From: a virus
Virus record (IMG/VR): IMGVR_UViG_3300020732_000008
Location: 1 to 64,000 of that record
Reading direction: 5' to 3' (one strand)
Length of the DNA: 64,000 nt
Every line of letters starts with the position of its first letter. Within the stretch, counting starts at the first letter, position 1. A program made the position numbers and the translations under genes. Positions 3,343 to 43,936 of this stretch are shown piece after piece. The notes under the pieces were generated by a model. The model saw nothing but the letters and a program-made list of their open reading frames with translations. It was not told the DNA's origin and made no database searches.

Positions 3343-3652
3343 CGTTTCTATCCAACCATTCATCCAGAGTTAGGCCTTGTTTTTCATACTTGCGCTTTAA
3401 CGCATTACGTTCTCTGTGGGACATGCCCCCAAAGATTCCGTGGAGTTCTTCGTTTACTATAGCTTCTTTTAAGCATTCTCGCTTAACGGGACAGGTTGGG
3501 CGACCGTCTTTACCGTTACATATTGCCTTAGCTTTGTCAGCAATAATCTTGTAGAGCTCTTTGTCTCTTGGTGGAAAGAAGATTTCAGTGTCTTCTCCTT
3601 GACACTTAGCCTCATATCTCCAAGTCCAGGGTTGGGTATCCCTGGCGTTCAA
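3305..3652 (-). CDS. whiB: WhiB-family transcription factor with an insertion in the CxxC
   Basis: AKC...IFFP...AKAIC-x8-CPV..EC...GIFGG. Confidence 0.9.
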   Translation of the reverse strand: MNARDTQPWTWRYEAKCQGEDTEIFFPPRDKELYKIIADKAKAICNGKDGRPTCPVKRECLKEAIVNEELHGIFGGMSHRERNALKRKYEKQGLTLDEWLDRNDVKAPNSKEQRS

Positions 3653-14521: not shown

Positions 14522-14756
14522 TGGACCTCATCTTTCTACGTAGCTTTCGACGTTCTTCCGTGGTTGTTCCGCCCCAGATACCCTCTAAACGTTCGTCTAG
14601 AGCCAGGGTTAAACACTGTGACTGTACAGCACATGTTGAGCAGATACTTTTAGCAAGGAGACTCTGTATACGATCCTCTTCGTCTTCAGGAAAGAAGATG
14701 TCCGGATCTTTATCCGAACAAGCAGTGTTTCCATCAAACAGCGAAGGGGTTTCCAT
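14493..14756 (-). CDS. whiB: WhiB-family transcription factor
   Basis: C...DPDIFFP...AKSICSTC.V...C...GIWGG.T..ER; probable start METPS at 14756. Confidence 0.92.
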   Translation of the reverse strand: METPSLFDGNTACSDKDPDIFFPEDEEDRIQSLLAKSICSTCAVQSQCLTLALDERLEGIWGGTTTEERRKLRRKMRSSEINTRATA

Positions 14757-38241: not shown

Positions 38242-38508
38242 TTACTCTCCTGCTTCAAGATCCTCGTCTGTCAATTGTACAGCGCTCAGGTTCATCTGAC
38301 CCCATTTACCTACAGGACACTCAGCATTAGGGAGCTTAGTCTTGAGGTTCATAAAGCAACCACACTCTTTACACTGATGTGTAAGGGCAATGAAGTGCTC
38401 ACATCCCTGGCATATCTCATAGCGGGCAGCAGCTACAGTCTCTGTAACTCTGCCTATCTTTTTATTAAAGAGGTCCCAAGGTCTAGCTGGACGATCTGCT
38501 TCACTCAT
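38242..38508 (-). CDS. small six-Cys protein (DUF6171-like)
   Basis: R..IC..C...QC..CGCF...K......CP.GKW; probable start MSEAD (ATGA overlap). Confidence 0.75.
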   Translation of the reverse strand: MSEADRPARPWDLFNKKIGRVTETVAAARYEICQGCEHFIALTHQCKECGCFMNLKTKLPNAECPVGKWGQMNLSAVQLTDEDLEAGE

Positions 38509-39170
38509 TTGTAACTCTTTCTCTGCCACCAGTTCTTCTTATAAACACCAAATGGGGGATTAAGGATTCTATATGCTTCGTTATGTTGCATCTCACCCTT
38601 CTTGCTATCTCGTACTTCCATTTCCCAATCTTCTCTTTTAAAGGGAATGCATTGGATCATTGGTGTGCCTGCTTCAATAATTCCAGTCCAACCCTTCTTT
38701 AAAAGAAAGGGATAGTTGACTACTACAGGGTGTACGTCCGTATCGACCACAGCAGTTAATGACTTAAAAGGAAGATCGGTTCTATTAATTGGGTGGGTAA
38801 ATAGGGTGCTATAGCCCTTGGGTGTCTTAATTCTAAAACTGCTATTGAACTTCCAAGGATGTTCTCCATCTAAGTCTTCATCGATCTCAGCGTTAGTCAC
38901 CTGATACTTTGTGTGACTAGATACCGGTTTTGATAGGATGGAGTTATGCCTCCACTCTTCACCTGTGAATTCAATATCACAGGGAACTGGAACCATGTAC
39001 CCGGCAGTCATTCCATCTAAAAATGGGATGCAAGTTTTAACAGTGATGATCTTATCTTCGCCCACCATAGGTATGGCTTTATACCATTCAGGGATAAACT
39101 TAGATGCAGGACCGGGAGCAAGAATATCCAGGTCAGGATTTTCCCTTAGAAACTCAATCTTTTTTGACAA
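38505..39170 (-). CDS. DUF6065-like protein, paralog 2
   Basis: P.PA....P.W, KTCIPFLD...GY, TPKGYS.LF.HP.N, D.D, GTP..Q.IP.KR..W; TTG start after AAGGAG. Confidence 0.7.
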   Translation of the reverse strand: MSKKIEFLRENPDLDILAPGPASKFIPEWYKAIPMVGEDKIITVKTCIPFLDGMTAGYMVPVPCDIEFTGEEWRHNSILSKPVSSHTKYQVTNAEIDEDLDGEHPWKFNSSFRIKTPKGYSTLFTHPINRTDLPFKSLTAVVDTDVHPVVVNYPFLLKKGWTGIIEAGTPMIQCIPFKREDWEMEVRDSKKGEMQHNEAYRILNPPFGVYKKNWWQRKSYK

Positions 39171-39510
39171 GTGTCTCTCCTTCAGCTGGAGTAAATGTTT
39201 TAGACACATTATCGTACGTCCAACCTATTGTTGGGCGTACTGGGTAAATAGTAGGGTCTAAGCTAATAAACACTGGCTCGCTTAGTAGTATTGCTGCTAA
39301 CCTATCGTTTACTCCTATAACTTCAACAACCTCATTGTCTATGAGTACAGCGATATTGTGTACTACTACTGGAGGTAGGTCAGTGATCTTCCCCGCTTCA
39401 ACAGGGCGTCTATCAGAAGTCTTTTTAACTAAGTACTCACCTAGCTTATGAGCTGTCCATTTAGGTAGGCTCATACAGGTTGCAACAAATGGCTTATTCT
39501 TTTTAAACAT
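39154..39510 (-). CDS. small GWTYD-motif protein, putative fibre chaperone
   Basis: IAVLIDNEV.EV......AA..LSEP.F...IGWTYD; paralog of 40228-40512. Confidence 0.65.
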   Translation of the reverse strand: MFKKNKPFVATCMSLPKWTAHKLGEYLVKKTSDRRPVEAGKITDLPPVVVHNIAVLIDNEVVEVIGVNDRLAAILLSEPVFISLDPTIYPVRPTIGWTYDNVSKTFTPAEGETLVKKD

Positions 39511-40187
39511 TATCTGTATACCTTCTTTACCCACAAAAACTTCTTATAAAAGTGCTCGTTATCTCTGGTTATTGAACCCTGTCTAATTGCTGTATTAGAA
39601 AGACCAAAGTCGATCATACTCTTCCATGAAGCTCTCTTTACAGGAATAACCTGAGCAAATGGAGTGCCAGCGACTATTCTTCCTTCAAAATCTTCTTTAA
39701 TAAAGAAGGGGATATTACCGTAGTTATAGTACTTGTCACTATCCATATATGCGCTAAGTGTAGTAAACGGTAGATCATGATGGTTGTAGGGATGGGTAAC
39801 AATAGTGCTCCAACCTCGTGGAGTTTTCCAACCCCACTTAGAGCTCCAGACCATTCCATTAGGAGAGTGTCCAGCAGGACGTGGGATTGTTGAACCTAGT
39901 TCAACTGGGCGTTCTCCAATAAATCCCTCCCAACCATCGGGAGCGTTCCAACGAATATTTTGAGTGCCGTCTTCATTTTTAGTAACAAAGATATCAAATG
40001 GGGTTACTAACATGTATCCACTGATCAAAACATCTAAAAAGGGTATGCAGGCCTTCATACCGGGATCACCGGTAGAAAGCTCTAGCTCGCCCTTCTTCCA
40101 CCAACCAGGAACAAAGTTCTTTGCTGGTTGGGGTACACCTACGGACGAGTTAATGCCGGTGGATGGCACAAATCTAATAAGCTTCAT
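39510..40187 (-). CDS. DUF6065-like protein, paralog 1
   Basis: PQPA...VP.W, KACIPFLD...GY, TPRGWS...HPYN, GTPFAQVIP.KR..W. Confidence 0.7.
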   Translation of the reverse strand: MKLIRFVPSTGINSSVGVPQPAKNFVPGWWKKGELELSTGDPGMKACIPFLDVLISGYMLVTPFDIFVTKNEDGTQNIRWNAPDGWEGFIGERPVELGSTIPRPAGHSPNGMVWSSKWGWKTPRGWSTIVTHPYNHHDLPFTTLSAYMDSDKYYNYGNIPFFIKEDFEGRIVAGTPFAQVIPVKRASWKSMIDFGLSNTAIRQGSITRDNEHFYKKFLWVKKVYR

Positions 40188-40194
40188 ATGTTCC

Positions 40195-40228
40195 TTCTTA
40201 TACTCCGAATTATTAAAAGATTATATAT
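40195..40228 (-). promoter_or_regulatory. possible internal promoter
   Basis: AT-rich intergenic gap with TATAAT, upstream of the AAGGA RBS of gene 40187. Confidence 0.35.
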
Positions 40229-40512
40229 TACGCCTTAGGAAGACCTGTAACTGGATCTAAAGTTTGAGGAGAAGCTAAGTTTGCATTAGGGTTTGTAAAG
40301 ACCCCCGTAGCAGCATCGTAGGTCCAGCCCATTTGAGCTTGCCCATTCTCGATCTGTACGAAGGTAGGCTGCGCCATGAAACGTGCAGCATCTACACCCT
40401 GAAGATTCATAACCTGATTTACAACGCCATCAATAATGAGGGCTATAAAGTAAGGTTGTGTAGGAATCGCCACAGGTTGAGGTACTGGTGGTAGTGGGGG
40501 GAGCGTTGTCAT
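40228..40512 (-). CDS. small GWTYD-motif protein, putative fibre chaperone
   Basis: IALIIDGVV.QV......AA.F..QPTF...GWTYD. Confidence 0.65.
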   Translation of the reverse strand: MTTLPPLPPVPQPVAIPTQPYFIALIIDGVVNQVMNLQGVDAARFMAQPTFVQIENGQAQMGWTYDAATGVFTNPNANLASPQTLDPVTGLPKA

Positions 40513-40524
40513 TGCTGACCTTTC

Positions 40525-41679
40525 TTAGTAATTTGGAGTAGCGCTGTAGTCATCCAGGGAATTACCCTGGTTGTATGAAGAAGGTGAAAGAACTATACCA
40601 TAGGTGGTTGATACGGTGGCTCCTGTAGCCGTGTAGACAAGGTCAGATCCTACCTGTGTTACCAGATTATCAGAGTAAACCTTTATGTCTATATTCTTAT
40701 TATTTTGGTTGGCTGTAACTGAAAAGGCCTTGATAACTGAGGCTACGGTCCACTGATACAGCTGGCTTACCGCATTAGCTATAGACTGCAGTACCTGGAC
40801 AGTAACTGGGTAACAGGTCTGGCAATTACAGGAATAGTTAGTTCCAGCAACATAGGAACAGCTATTGCAACCAGAATAATAGGTGTTTCCGCTAACGCAG
40901 CTATTGCAACCTGAATAGTAGGGAGTTCCTGCGTTTGTATTACAGGTCTGATCTGAGTTACAACTGTTGCATCCCGCATAGTAGGTGTTTTGATAGCAAG
41001 GTCCGGCAGCGTTAACGTAGTTATAACAACCGTATCCACCACCAGAACCACATCCATAACAGCATATTTGAGCCGCATTTCCAGGTACACAGTACTGGTT
41101 AGTACCACAGGGGCTGTGGGTACAGTACTGGTTACCAGCGTATGTGCAGTATTGGTTTCCAGCGTTAGTTCCACATACGGAGCTATTGCAATATGAATTA
41201 GATCCACAAGGGTTACTATTACAAGCAGTGTATCCGTTATTACAGGTCTGACAGTTACAGCTAGTAGAGCTTTGACTTGATGTTACAGCAAACCAGTTTC
41301 CGCTATCTGTAGCCCACAAAACTAGTCCTGTTCCATCTCCGGCACTATCAATAGTTTGGGTTACTGAGGCTGCTCCCTGACCAATGCTTTGAGTGGCGAT
41401 AGGGTATGTTGAAGGGTTGTCAGTAGTAGTAGCAGCGCCGGTTTTAACAAACCAGTTGCCTCTAAGAGCGGTCCAGGGTTGTCCGCTATCAGCGGTGCCT
41501 AAACCGGTAGTGGTATCTGCACGAGTAAACGTATCAGAGATTAAGGCAGCAAACCAAAGTCTCCAAGTGGTTCCTACCTTTACAAAGCCCTGGCTTACAG
41601 TTCTCCAAGAATTACCGACTTTTACATTGACGCCTGAAATTGTGCGCCAGGTACCATTTATGTTTACCTTACCAGTCAT
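40525..41679 (-). CDS. fibre-tip protein with a mirror-symmetric 26-Cys insertion
   Basis: Three N-terminal (K)V-x-G-x-W-R-like repeats; D.F.RAD...LG.A..G..W beta-sandwich start; 150-aa Cys/Asn/Tyr-rich insert. Confidence 0.7.
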   Translation of the reverse strand: MTGKVNINGTWRTISGVNVKVGNSWRTVSQGFVKVGTTWRLWFAALISDTFTRADTTTGLGTADSGQPWTALRGNWFVKTGAATTTDNPSTYPIATQSIGQGAASVTQTIDSAGDGTGLVLWATDSGNWFAVTSSQSSTSCNCQTCNNGYTACNSNPCGSNSYCNSSVCGTNAGNQYCTYAGNQYCTHSPCGTNQYCVPGNAAQICCYGCGSGGGYGCYNYVNAAGPCYQNTYYAGCNSCNSDQTCNTNAGTPYYSGCNSCVSGNTYYSGCNSCSYVAGTNYSCNCQTCYPVTVQVLQSIANAVSQLYQWTVASVIKAFSVTANQNNKNIDIKVYSDNLVTQVGSDLVYTATGATVSTTYGIVLSPSSYNQGNSLDDYSATPNY

Positions 41680-41915
41680 TACACGTATACCAACCAGACG
41701 TCGCCATCTTGACCCTGGCTATTTGTAGGGGTTGCAATAGAGGATGTAGTGTTTCTTACAACATTGAGGGAGCTGTTTGAGGTTGTTACTTGTCCGTTAG
41801 AAACGGCCACAGCACCGAGTGATGTGGCGGTAATTCCTAGAGAAGCTGCACTAATCTGTGCAGATCCAAACGATACCCATTGATTTGTAGATGCATTCCA
41901 TTTAGCGATAGTCAT
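41679..41915 (-). CDS. small fibre adaptor protein
   Basis: N-terminal KWN....W; C-terminal P....G.DGDVW. Confidence 0.6.
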   Translation of the reverse strand: MTIAKWNASTNQWVSFGSAQISAASLGITATSLGAVAVSNGQVTTSNSSLNVVRNTTSSIATPTNSQGQDGDVWLVYV

Positions 41916-42507: not shown

Positions 42508-42849
42508 TTAGGAGAGCTCTGAGCCAAAAGCCTGGAATGCCAAGCCGGTGCTGGTGCTATACGCACCGATTAGATCGTTAGGAGCTAAGGTAATTCCAAG
42601 GGTATAGGTGATAGTTTCACCGGCTGCTACGGAAGCACCGTAAGCGATGTATTGCTTTGTTGAGAGGGTAGCCCCACCCTGACGTACGGCAATGTTATAC
42701 GTGGCAGTGTTACTGCTGGTATTGCATACAGTTATTGTTGAGATTACTGAGCCGAGGACGTTGCTGTTAACTGAGTAGATTACCGACTCATTTGTACCTA
42801 CGCCTGATGTGGGATTAACCTGCCCCAGGATTTTATAAGCTGTTGCCAA
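42508..42849 (-). CDS. small beta-rich virion protein
   Basis: MATAYKILGQ...STI.VCN...GITL...D...FGSE; distant paralog of 49610-49912. Confidence 0.65.
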   Translation of the reverse strand: MATAYKILGQVNPTSGVGTNESVIYSVNSNVLGSVISTITVCNTSSNTATYNIAVRQGGATLSTKQYIAYGASVAAGETITYTLGITLAPNDLIGAYSTSTGLAFQAFGSELS

Positions 42850-43936
42850 CTGAAGGCTCCTTTAAATAGAAAGCAAGATTTTGTTGAAGACGTACTTCAT
42901 TTGGTTGCAATTCTACAGCCTTAGTGCCATATTTAATGGCTCTTTCTAAGAGAACTTTAGCCTCTTCAAGATCAGATTCAGTGGTAGATAGGTAATAGCA
43001 GGATATGGCAGCATAATCCCAAGGCTGTGGTCCCCACGCCCATGACTCACATAGGAAATCCAAAGGCTTTTCTTCAATAGATAAAGCTAAAGTAGATGCT
43101 TCTAGGCATTCTTCCCAACGCTTTTCTTCATAGTAAAGCTTAGCCAATTCCACATAAGCTTCACGACGTGCAGGGTCTTCTTCTACAGCTGCCTTAAACC
43201 ACTTGATCATTTCCTCTAAATCTGGGGAAACCATATTAGCTATGTAACGCATAGCTGCAGCACGCTCTGGCTTCCATTGAGCATGGGGCATAGATAGGTA
43301 TCGTTTAAACTCCTCAATTGCTTGAGGATATTGGGTGTGAAAGAAAAGCTCACGGGCATAGTAGAAAGAACTCCGCTCATCATTGGGAGCTTCTTGAACT
43401 GTAAGAGCTAAAAGAGGCAGGTACTGTCCACGTGATTTAGATGCATCAGCACGGTGGTGTATCTCAAGATCAATATACTCTGCCGTCTCTTCAATGCGGT
43501 CTGGGACTAGGATCTCGTGTACGGCATTCTTCCAACGATACCCATGACGTGTGTGGATGTGATCCCCACCAAAGGTTAATCCCGGGGTACCATCTGGATT
43601 AAAGTTCCAAGTGTACTGGTAACGAGGTCGTGTGACCTTGGTCTTTTCAAGAGCCTTACGCCATCCAGGCATAAGCATCTCATCCATATCGACGGATACA
43701 CAATAGTCAATGTTGTCTGGAAGTAGGGCTAGGGCCGCATTACGGGCGTCATCAAACCGCCAAGGCTTAACGCTGATTGTGTGGCACACAATACCAAGGG
43801 ACTTAGCTAGCTCTACGGTTTTATCTGTAGATCCAGTATCAACTATCATAAGATAGTCAGCGTCCTTATTGTGCTGAGCCCAACGAGCTACATGCTGCTC
43901 TTCATTAAGGGCAATAGTGTATACAGCTATTTTCAT
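42833..43936 (-). CDS. GT2-family glycosyltransferase with C-terminal TPR repeats
   Basis: I..NEE, VDTGSTD.T, F..ARN.AL, DMDE (DxD), W...VHE, helical TPR-like C-terminus. Confidence 0.9.
   Translation of the reverse strand: MKIAVYTIALNEEQHVARWAQHNKDADYLMIVDTGSTDKTVELAKSLGIVCHTISVKPWRFDDARNAALALLPDNIDYCVSVDMDEMLMPGWRKALEKTKVTRPRYQYTWNFNPDGTPGLTFGGDHIHTRHGYRWKNAVHEILVPDRIEETAEYIDLEIHHRADASKSRGQYLPLLALTVQEAPNDERSSFYYARELFFHTQYPQAIEEFKRYLSMPHAQWKPERAAAMRYIANMVSPDLEEMIKWFKAAVEEDPARREAYVELAKLYYEEKRWEECLEASTLALSIEEKPLDFLCESWAWGPQPWDYAAISCYYLSTTESDLEEAKVLLERAIKYGTKAVELQPNEVRLQQNLAFYLKEPSVGNSL

Follow-up and report, generated by a model that had tools for sequence, protein, structure and literature searches.

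Gene organization and cysteine pattern

The DNA analysed here (the window) comprises the 64,000 nucleotides at positions 1 to 64,000 of the IMG/VR virus record IMGVR_UViG_3300020732_000008. The present study concerns one of its genes, located on the minus strand at 40525..41679, which codes for a protein with a predicted lectin-type fold and an insert lined with cysteines (hereafter the ladder protein). According to its open reading frame (stop codon at 40525-40527) and translation, this gene encodes 384 amino acids, and it occurs only once in the virus record (103,932 bp). The protein contains 26 cysteines, every one of them within residues 141-289, namely at residues 141, 143, 146, 153, 158, 164, 169, 178, 186, 191, 197, 206, 207, 210, 218, 228, 237, 240, 246, 258, 261, 271, 274, 284, 286 and 289, with successive spacings of 2, 3, 7, 5, 6, 5, 9, 8, 5, 6, 9, 1, 3, 8, 10, 9, 3, 6, 12, 3, 10, 3, 10, 2 and 3 residues.

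The following parts can be distinguished along the chain, all encoded on the minus strand: (i) residues 1-48 (41536..41679), a probable attachment module of three GxWxxV-type strand repeats, which matches PHROG 25859, a family of unknown function, over residues 3-48; (ii) residues 49-139 (41263..41535), the first half of a predicted ConA/CBM66-like sandwich; (iii) residues 140-146 (41242..41262), a first SCNCQTC bracket with cysteines 1-3; (iv) residues 147-205 (41065..41241), an outbound arm with cysteines 4-11; (v) residues 206-218 (41026..41064), a tip with cysteines 12-15; (vi) residues 219-282 (40834..41025), a return arm with cysteines 16-23; (vii) residues 283-289 (40813..40833), a second SCNCQTC bracket with cysteines 24-26; and (viii) residues 290-384 (40528..40812), the second half of the sandwich. 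Parts (iii) to (vii) were delimited on the translation, and the two sandwich halves on model confidence and fold matches.

An initial annotation, made from the sequence alone, had described the insert as an exactly mirror-symmetric ladder of 26 cysteines bounded by two identical heptapeptides, and the translation agrees with most of this description. Indeed, SCNCQTC is present at both ends of the insert, residues 140-146 and 283-289, which together delimit window positions 40813-41262 exactly. The outbound cysteines are grouped as triple, pair, pair, single, pair and single, then follows the four-cysteine tip CCYGCGSGGGYGC at residues 206-218, and the same groups return in reverse order. The three outbound pairs are of the C-x4-C type and the three return pairs are CNSC. 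In the ladder notation used here, in which loop i lies opposite loop N-i and mirror pairing joins Cys i with Cys N+1-i, the TNAG motif occurs on both arms, in the mirror-paired loops 7 and 19. The degenerate repeats AGNQYCT (two copies) and YYxGCNSC (three copies) were both found. The symmetry is exact for counts and grouping but not for spacings (x4 in the outbound pairs vs x2 in the return pairs); the two SCNCQTC brackets are direct copies of each other and not mirror images, and the division of the outbound cysteines into pairs and singles depends on gaps of 5 vs 6 residues. The three shortest loops coincide on both arms, for which the chance, counted from the spacings, is 1 in 84. Taken alone, the mirror pattern of this protein is only weakly beyond chance, and it becomes convincing only across its family.

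Fold of the protein body

The protein was modelled with AlphaFold2 from an alignment of 54 rows. The predicted local distance difference test (pLDDT) exceeds 90 for residues 50-150 and 270-384, with values of 93 for residues 141-150 and 96 for residues 281-290 around the two brackets and 89-97 along the second half of the sandwich, and this confident region is a single beta sandwich built from the segments on either side of the insert. The flanks WFAVTS and VTVQVL, which had been read as adjacent beta strands, are strands of this one domain in the model (residues 129-136 and 292-300). The N-terminal strands are short, with a pLDDT of 51-66.

The best structural match of the model is the C-terminal part of the central fibre gp20 of mycobacteriophage Douge (8ZDQ; Z 17.4, root mean square deviation (rmsd) 2.8, 173 residues), followed by a CBM66 module (4B1M; Z 16.3, rmsd 2.6, 151 residues) and the receptor-binding domain of TM4 gp23 (9N6A; Z 15.1), the next matches being GH43 accessory domains and legume lectins. 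Both the pLDDT and the Z scores correspond to a two-sheet jelly-roll sandwich of the ConA-like/CBM66 type, which typically spans about 160-200 residues, and the body as modelled is thus a ConA/CBM66-like sandwich whose closest counterparts are the receptor-binding domains of mycobacteriophage tail tips. At the base of the insert, short strands were modelled at residues 139-141, 144-147 and 150-153, which mirror those at 287-289, 281-284 and 274-277, a layout consistent with the pairs C141-C289, C146-C284 and C153-C274. At the sequence level, the ladder protein had no match in Pfam, and searches of the PDB with the ladder protein and with two kinds of protein encoded downstream of it (DUF6065-like and six-cysteine proteins, see below) returned nothing, or rows at chance level only.

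Relatives and mirror register of the cysteine ladder

A word-seeded search recovered 151 relatives, and a profile search recovered 1088 cluster representatives (50% identity) at E <=0.001, including 258 at <=1e-30. None of these 1088 clusters occurs in the cultured phages of the collection searched, and a tblastn search against cultured phages matched the N-terminal 43 residues only, in Burkholderia and Ralstonia FLC phages. Most relatives keep C-N-C-x-x-C at both ends of the insert, and CNCQTCYP, at the second bracket, is conserved across the ladder family; the rest is highly variable in length and sequence. The insert ranges from 100 to more than 300 residues, with 4-23 rungs spaced by 5-10 residues or more, and the number of cysteines per protein from 4 to 46. 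In relative P0016, some nine CNCxTC modules make up the stalk, with a return module opposite every outbound one, and on this sequence the bracket motif resembles a six-cysteine unit that can be stacked.

Nearly all proteins have an even number of cysteines, namely 117 of 119 relatives and, among the representatives at 50% identity, 127 of 131. Odd-numbered members are rare, for instance P0009 (21 cysteines) and P0098 (17 cysteines); P0009, which has four outbound vs five return repeats, could represent an intermediate stage of evolution or an artefact of assembly. Furthermore, 19 of the 150 best representatives are cysteine-free; their insert is still rich in Tyr/Asn/Ser/Gly and repetitive in both halves, so that cysteines are not required for the two-armed insert. 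In this cysteine-free clade (P0193, P0164, P0205 and others), the insert is of similar or greater length, with Tyr/Asn/Gly repeats such as GSNYGxx.

The register of the two arms was examined in the 115 representatives with at least 12 cysteines by scoring seven registers. The exact mirror register, about the middle cysteine pair, was the best of the seven in 73 representatives, and the direct (parallel) and shifted registers scored below it. The lengths of facing loops are correlated (pooled Spearman 0.65 over 847 loop pairs), and their observed mean difference of 0.363 compares with 0.664 (standard deviation 0.015) after shuffling of the return arm (z = -20.5). Long loops lie opposite long loops, for example 48 vs 51, 35 vs 38 and 26 vs 31 residues. 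Sequence motifs follow the same rule: of the 15 proteins that have both the loop C[DN]V[VT]GNR[FY]C and the loop CN..N.GNC, 14 carry them opposite each other on one rung, for N = 16-28 and a rung index of 6-11, the single miss being a protein in which two similar loops adjoin. In other subfamilies, this conserved loop pair has swapped arms and is still opposite.

Comparison of close relatives (alignable inserts of at least 55% identity with differing numbers of cysteines) showed that extra cysteines are split equally between the arms (1+1, 2+2 or 3+3) in 28 of 29 comparisons, which represent about 14 distinct events. For example, a C-x-C has been added at the matching rung of both arms between P0033 and P0034, and P0023 and P0022 differ by one cysteine of a C-x4-C pair and one cysteine of the facing CNSC pair. 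A change of cysteines in one arm only, which had been set beforehand as a case that would contradict the stalk, was not seen. The mirrored loop lengths, the placement of motif partners on a shared rung and the balanced gains and losses thus argue for the proposed out-and-back stalk with rung-matched cysteines, and the balanced changes of cysteines and repeats between relatives favour the further suggestion that its length is tuned by coordinated change in both arms.

Part of these data would also suit a local pairing of neighbouring cysteines in a beta-solenoid or in stacked hairpins, as in insect antifreeze proteins and granulins, the mirror look being incidental. The repeats of the ladder recall the Tenebrio antifreeze protein, which is a disulfide-braced beta-helix; a cysteine every 5-8 residues in Ser/Thr/Asn/Gly-rich repeats is compatible with such a structure, and so are the even counts. 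However, the insect type has one repeat type with local cysteine pairs, and here the two halves carry different repeat types in equal numbers, as in P0063 with five xWNYQ repeats outbound and five xSQP repeats on the return, in addition to the preference for the mirror register. Moreover, each arm loses odd numbers of cysteines while the tip loops stay unmoved and homologous, which would shift a sequential register, so that sequential pairing cannot be conserved across relatives. Local pairing is therefore regarded as very unlikely.

Several observations weigh against the mirrored stalk. A shifted register was better in 42 of the 115 representatives, a CC doublet of P0194 is one rung out of register, and the base rungs cannot be in simple register because the brackets are direct repeats. 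For the protein of the window alone, a shuffle of loop lengths was not significant (p ~0.2-0.3). Compared with an out-and-back needle of the T4 gp37 type, the flanks of the insert belong to one domain and the arms are mirrored, and the stalk core (residues 164-257) has a pLDDT below 50. As this core is not modelled by AlphaFold2, the pairing of its cysteines is one that we infer from the comparative signature of the family, which makes nested pairing of Cys i with Cys 27-i the most likely arrangement.

Sequence variation along the proposed stalk

The tip had been expected to be hypervariable, and the comparisons point elsewhere. Between the protein of the window and P0002 (74% identical), identity is 98% over residues 1-139, and likewise over the attachment module at residues 1-48, 59% in the outbound arm, 63% in the return arm (with indels) and 71% in the second sandwich half, and reaches 92% (12/13) in the 13-residue tip. 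In a second subfamily (five proteins), identity is 0.90-1.00 in the base loops and in tip loops 9-13, and it is lowest in loops 6 and 7 (0.28) and in the loops opposite them, 16 and 15 (0.33 and 0.30). Conservation thus lies in the tip and the base, and variation in the paired loops of the mid-stalk. At the DNA level, the variable loops of the five genes of this subfamily have a nonsynonymous divergence (dN) of 0.33 and a synonymous divergence (dS) of 0.87, compared with a dN of 0.05 and a dS of 0.43 for the scaffold. The raised dS in the variable loops points to exchange of segments and not to point mutation alone.

A diversity-generating retroelement, an idea prompted by the asparagine-rich variable region, was also considered and rejected: the insert DNA occurs only once in the window and in the genome, which leaves no template repeat, and no RVT_1 match was obtained, in a search to which control genomes responded.

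Probable nature of the cross-links and proposed structure

The initial annotation had left the chemistry open between disulfides and Cys4 metal sites. Among the even cysteine counts, 60 are 0 and 67 are 2 modulo 4, so that there is no multiple-of-four rule and the conserved unit is the pair and not the quartet; the pairs of that proposal stand, which favours disulfides, and the quartets do not. Disulfides fit this pair rule, the rungs with a single cysteine per arm and the near absence of histidine, which makes up 0.1% of the inserts across the family and occurs once in the 150-residue insert of the protein studied here. Conversely, the protein folds in the reducing cytoplasm and no thioredoxin gene was found in the genome, in a search whose controls worked, two points that disfavour disulfides. 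A search for Erv1 was uninformative, its controls giving no response either.

Metal thiolate sites are a possible variant of the same hairpin: facing cysteines would bind Zn or Fe and form a metal-stapled needle like that of T4 gp37, in which seven iron ions staple the needle (PMC6957217). They are possible because of the reducing cytoplasm and because the three C-x4-C pairs of the protein lie opposite three C-x2-C pairs, which resembles Cys4 sites, and the conserved six-cysteine protein encoded downstream has a zinc-finger-like motif. In addition to the modulo-4 split and the scarcity of histidine, this variant is at odds with the single cysteine per rung, every 7 residues, of many homologues and with the gain and loss of cysteines as single pairs. 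Metal sites along the stalk thus seem unlikely.

The rungs could also be inter-chain, in a trimer whose cysteines link arms of different subunits into a six-stranded needle. Phage fibres are often trimers, the needle of T4 gp37 is made of three out-and-back chains (PMC6957217), the parity and mirror rules are equally expected for symmetric inter-chain pairs, and the N-terminal repeats are poorly modelled as a monomer. However, the nearest structural matches are globular lectin-type domains and the present data contain no sign of oligomerization, and we consider such a needle to have only a small probability. Finally, the cysteines could be substrates of enzymatic thioether cross-links of the radical-SAM Cys-Asn type, as asparagine is the commonest neighbour of cysteine in both arms. 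Such cross-links would not require even counts or matched arms, and they are unlikely because the complete 104-kb genome lacks a radical SAM gene (PF04055 not found; controls responded in 14/14 genomes); this chemistry is accordingly the most improbable of those considered.

In the structure that we favour, the chain would leave the sandwich between two neighbouring strands, run about 65 residues outwards, turn at the conserved Gly/Tyr/Cys tip and return antiparallel. The two arms would be pinned by nested pairs of Cys i with Cys 27-i, giving 13 rungs, of which the three base rungs would be formed by the two CNCQTC brackets. The cross-links would most likely be disulfides, formed after lysis in oxic water or with the aid of the downstream six-cysteine protein. 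The stalk would be altered only by paired events, one cysteine or one repeat per arm, and the facing mid-stalk loops would be diversified, partly through recombination. Such paired changes and mid-stalk diversification would yield a length-adjustable, covalently stiffened projection with its variable surface on the flanks and not at the tip. Overall, an out-and-back stalk with nested cross-arm disulfides, carried by a receptor-binding-type protein of lectin fold, is the probable reading, by a modest degree of confidence; physical pairing of the cysteines, their disulfide chemistry, the presence of the protein in the virion and its role towards a receptor are each what we infer.

Downstream genes and the six-cysteine protein

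Four genes, all on the minus strand (38505..40512), lie between the ladder gene and the gene of the six-cysteine protein. The downstream order is as follows: a small protein with a GWTYD motif (40228-40512), a DUF6065-like protein (39510-40187), a second copy of each (39154-39534 and 38505-39209, respectively) and the six-cysteine protein. The DUF6065-like paralogues match PHROG 7084, and the lead to DUF6065 came from a protein atlas. The six-cysteine protein (38242..38529, minus strand), a candidate dedicated partner of the ladder protein, has 95 amino acids and matches PHROG 13558 (6.8e-17). Its motif is PWDLFN...C-x2-C...C-x2-C-G-C...C-P-x-G-K-W, in which the six cysteines are invariant; DUF6171 was also detected, at 24.9 bits, which is below the Pfam gathering cut-off of 27. 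A search with its model (core pLDDT 82-91) gave no fold match above Z 2.1, and a complex prediction of the ladder protein with the six-cysteine protein scored 0.00, which is evidence neither way.

Neighbours were counted around 68 distinct homologues of the ladder gene with sufficient flanking DNA. The six-cysteine gene is present downstream of 55/55 cysteine-bearing homologues and of 0/13 cysteine-free ones, and DUF6065-like genes are present downstream in 52 of the 68 loci, including all 13 cysteine-free loci. In two loci with two ladder genes each (L018 and L043), a six-cysteine gene follows each ladder gene, and where the intervening genes are missing, it directly adjoins the ladder gene. 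In a tree of the scaffold, the cysteine-free genes form one clade, which corresponds to a single co-loss or co-gain; the link between the six-cysteine gene and cysteine content, coming from a single evolutionary change, is thus no statistical proof, and co-evolution is not claimed, which tempers the role given to this protein above. Homologues of the six-cysteine protein are also encoded in cyanophages and in Stenotrophomonas phages (e.g. Moby), not always adjoining a fibre gene. In Synechococcus phage S-IOM18 (L082:2597-4234), a small CPQC protein and a 316-residue protein with 9 cysteines precede the six-cysteine homologue, downstream of a fibre gene.

Genome setting and predicted host

The virus record comprises 103,932 bases and is complete according to CheckV. 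The genes around the ladder gene are all on the minus strand and form one structural block, which includes in order a major head protein, a collagen-like tail fibre, virion proteins, the ladder gene, a sheath, a tape measure carrying a peptidase domain and a baseplate wedge. The major head protein shares 73% identity with its counterparts in Streptomyces phages LuckySocke and BRock. Three WhiB genes were identified, two in the window (3398-3622 and 14541-14729) and one at genome position 81011-81214; WhiB is a marker of actinophages (PMC10202952), and its presence points to an actinobacterial host. With a G+C content of about 45%, the host is probably, on sequence grounds, a low-GC actinobacterium. 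Together with the stalk model, and at the same modest confidence, we regard the phage as myovirus-like, with a genome of 104 kb, and the ladder protein as a tail-associated protein of the receptor-binding type.

Two further genes of this region may be mentioned. A gene coding for 78 amino acids (41679-41915) lies upstream of the ladder gene, its stop codon overlapping the start codon of the latter by one base, and it is also directly upstream of the ladder gene in 13 related loci; overlap and recurrence suggest that both products are made together. A GT2 glycosyltransferase fused to TPR repeats is encoded inside the structural block (window 42833-43936), and among 79 related loci, 16 have such a gene close to the ladder gene.

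Comparison with known systems and significance

The sandwich fold is shared with Douge gp20, TM4 gp23 and CBM66 (Z 15-17 over 150-175 residues), at a sequence identity of only 7-12%, and the two phage proteins also have in common with the ladder protein a tail setting and actinobacterial hosts. Theta-defensins, protegrins and tachyplesins are cystine-ladder hairpins of about 18 residues with 2-3 rungs and nested cysteine pairs. The ladder protein would share with them the antiparallel hairpin and the nested pairing from first with last inwards, but these are free small peptides, whereas the ladder is a 150-residue insert in a phage lectin domain. The ultralong CDR-H3 (third complementarity-determining region of the heavy chain) of bovine antibodies, to which the insert had been likened, has a two-stranded stalk without cross-links and a disulfide-rich, hypervariable knob. 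Both would be long two-stranded projections from a beta-sandwich domain, for recognition; the analogy is nevertheless a poor fit because the cysteines line the stalk here, the tip is conserved and the mid-stalk is variable.

The needle of T4 gp37 (PDB 2XGF) is an out-and-back structure that leaves domain D10, formed by residues 811-881 and 1010-1026, and holds seven iron ions (PMC6957217). The ladder protein would resemble it in that the chain leaves a domain made of the flanking segments, reaches a tip and returns, with staples along the axis of an elongated projection, in a host-recognition protein. In gp37, however, the iron is held by histidines of three chains, and no such iron-coordinating histidine motif was found in the ladder insert, which is rich in cysteine and nearly free of histidine; there is no sequence similarity, and the base domain is here a ConA/CBM66-like sandwich. 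Disulfide-linked virion parts are known from the fibres of cyanophage Pam3 (PMC9942802) and the sheath of phage Milano (PMC10811340), which provide a precedent for tail disulfides despite cytoplasmic assembly, although those are few inter-subunit bonds fixing parts, unlike a ladder formed within one chain inside a variable insert.

The literature search returned no paper containing 'CNCQTC' and none on a phage cystine ladder. Nothing was thus found in it against the claim that no phage adhesin of such design has been described, the metal-stapled needle of T4 gp37 being a described out-and-back case (PMC6957217). What appears new is the proposed covalently laddered hairpin stalk, and what is known is the phage receptor-binding-type lectin protein that would carry it. 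A broader scenario, which is put forward tentatively and is less likely to be right than wrong in all its parts, is that freshwater actinophages use a modular, length-tunable cystine-ladder stalk on a lectin domain, with specificity residing in recombining pairs of facing mid-stalk loops, and that this stalk is folded or oxidized by a dedicated phage-encoded six-cysteine metalloprotein acting as a maturation factor in the reducing cytoplasm.

If the ladder is real, it would represent a simple, evolvable route to a rigid projection of adjustable length from low-complexity sequence, in which one cysteine per arm suffices for each rung. It would also be a testable case of how a phage equips a virion protein with many disulfides although this protein is made in a reducing cytoplasm, for which the six-cysteine gene is a lead. 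The ladder family would then provide clean natural data on disulfide covariation, and the stalk would be a candidate scaffold for engineered binders. Finally, the 1088 clusters, absent from the cultured phages searched, suggest that this design could be one of the main means by which abundant uncultured actinophages recognize their hosts.

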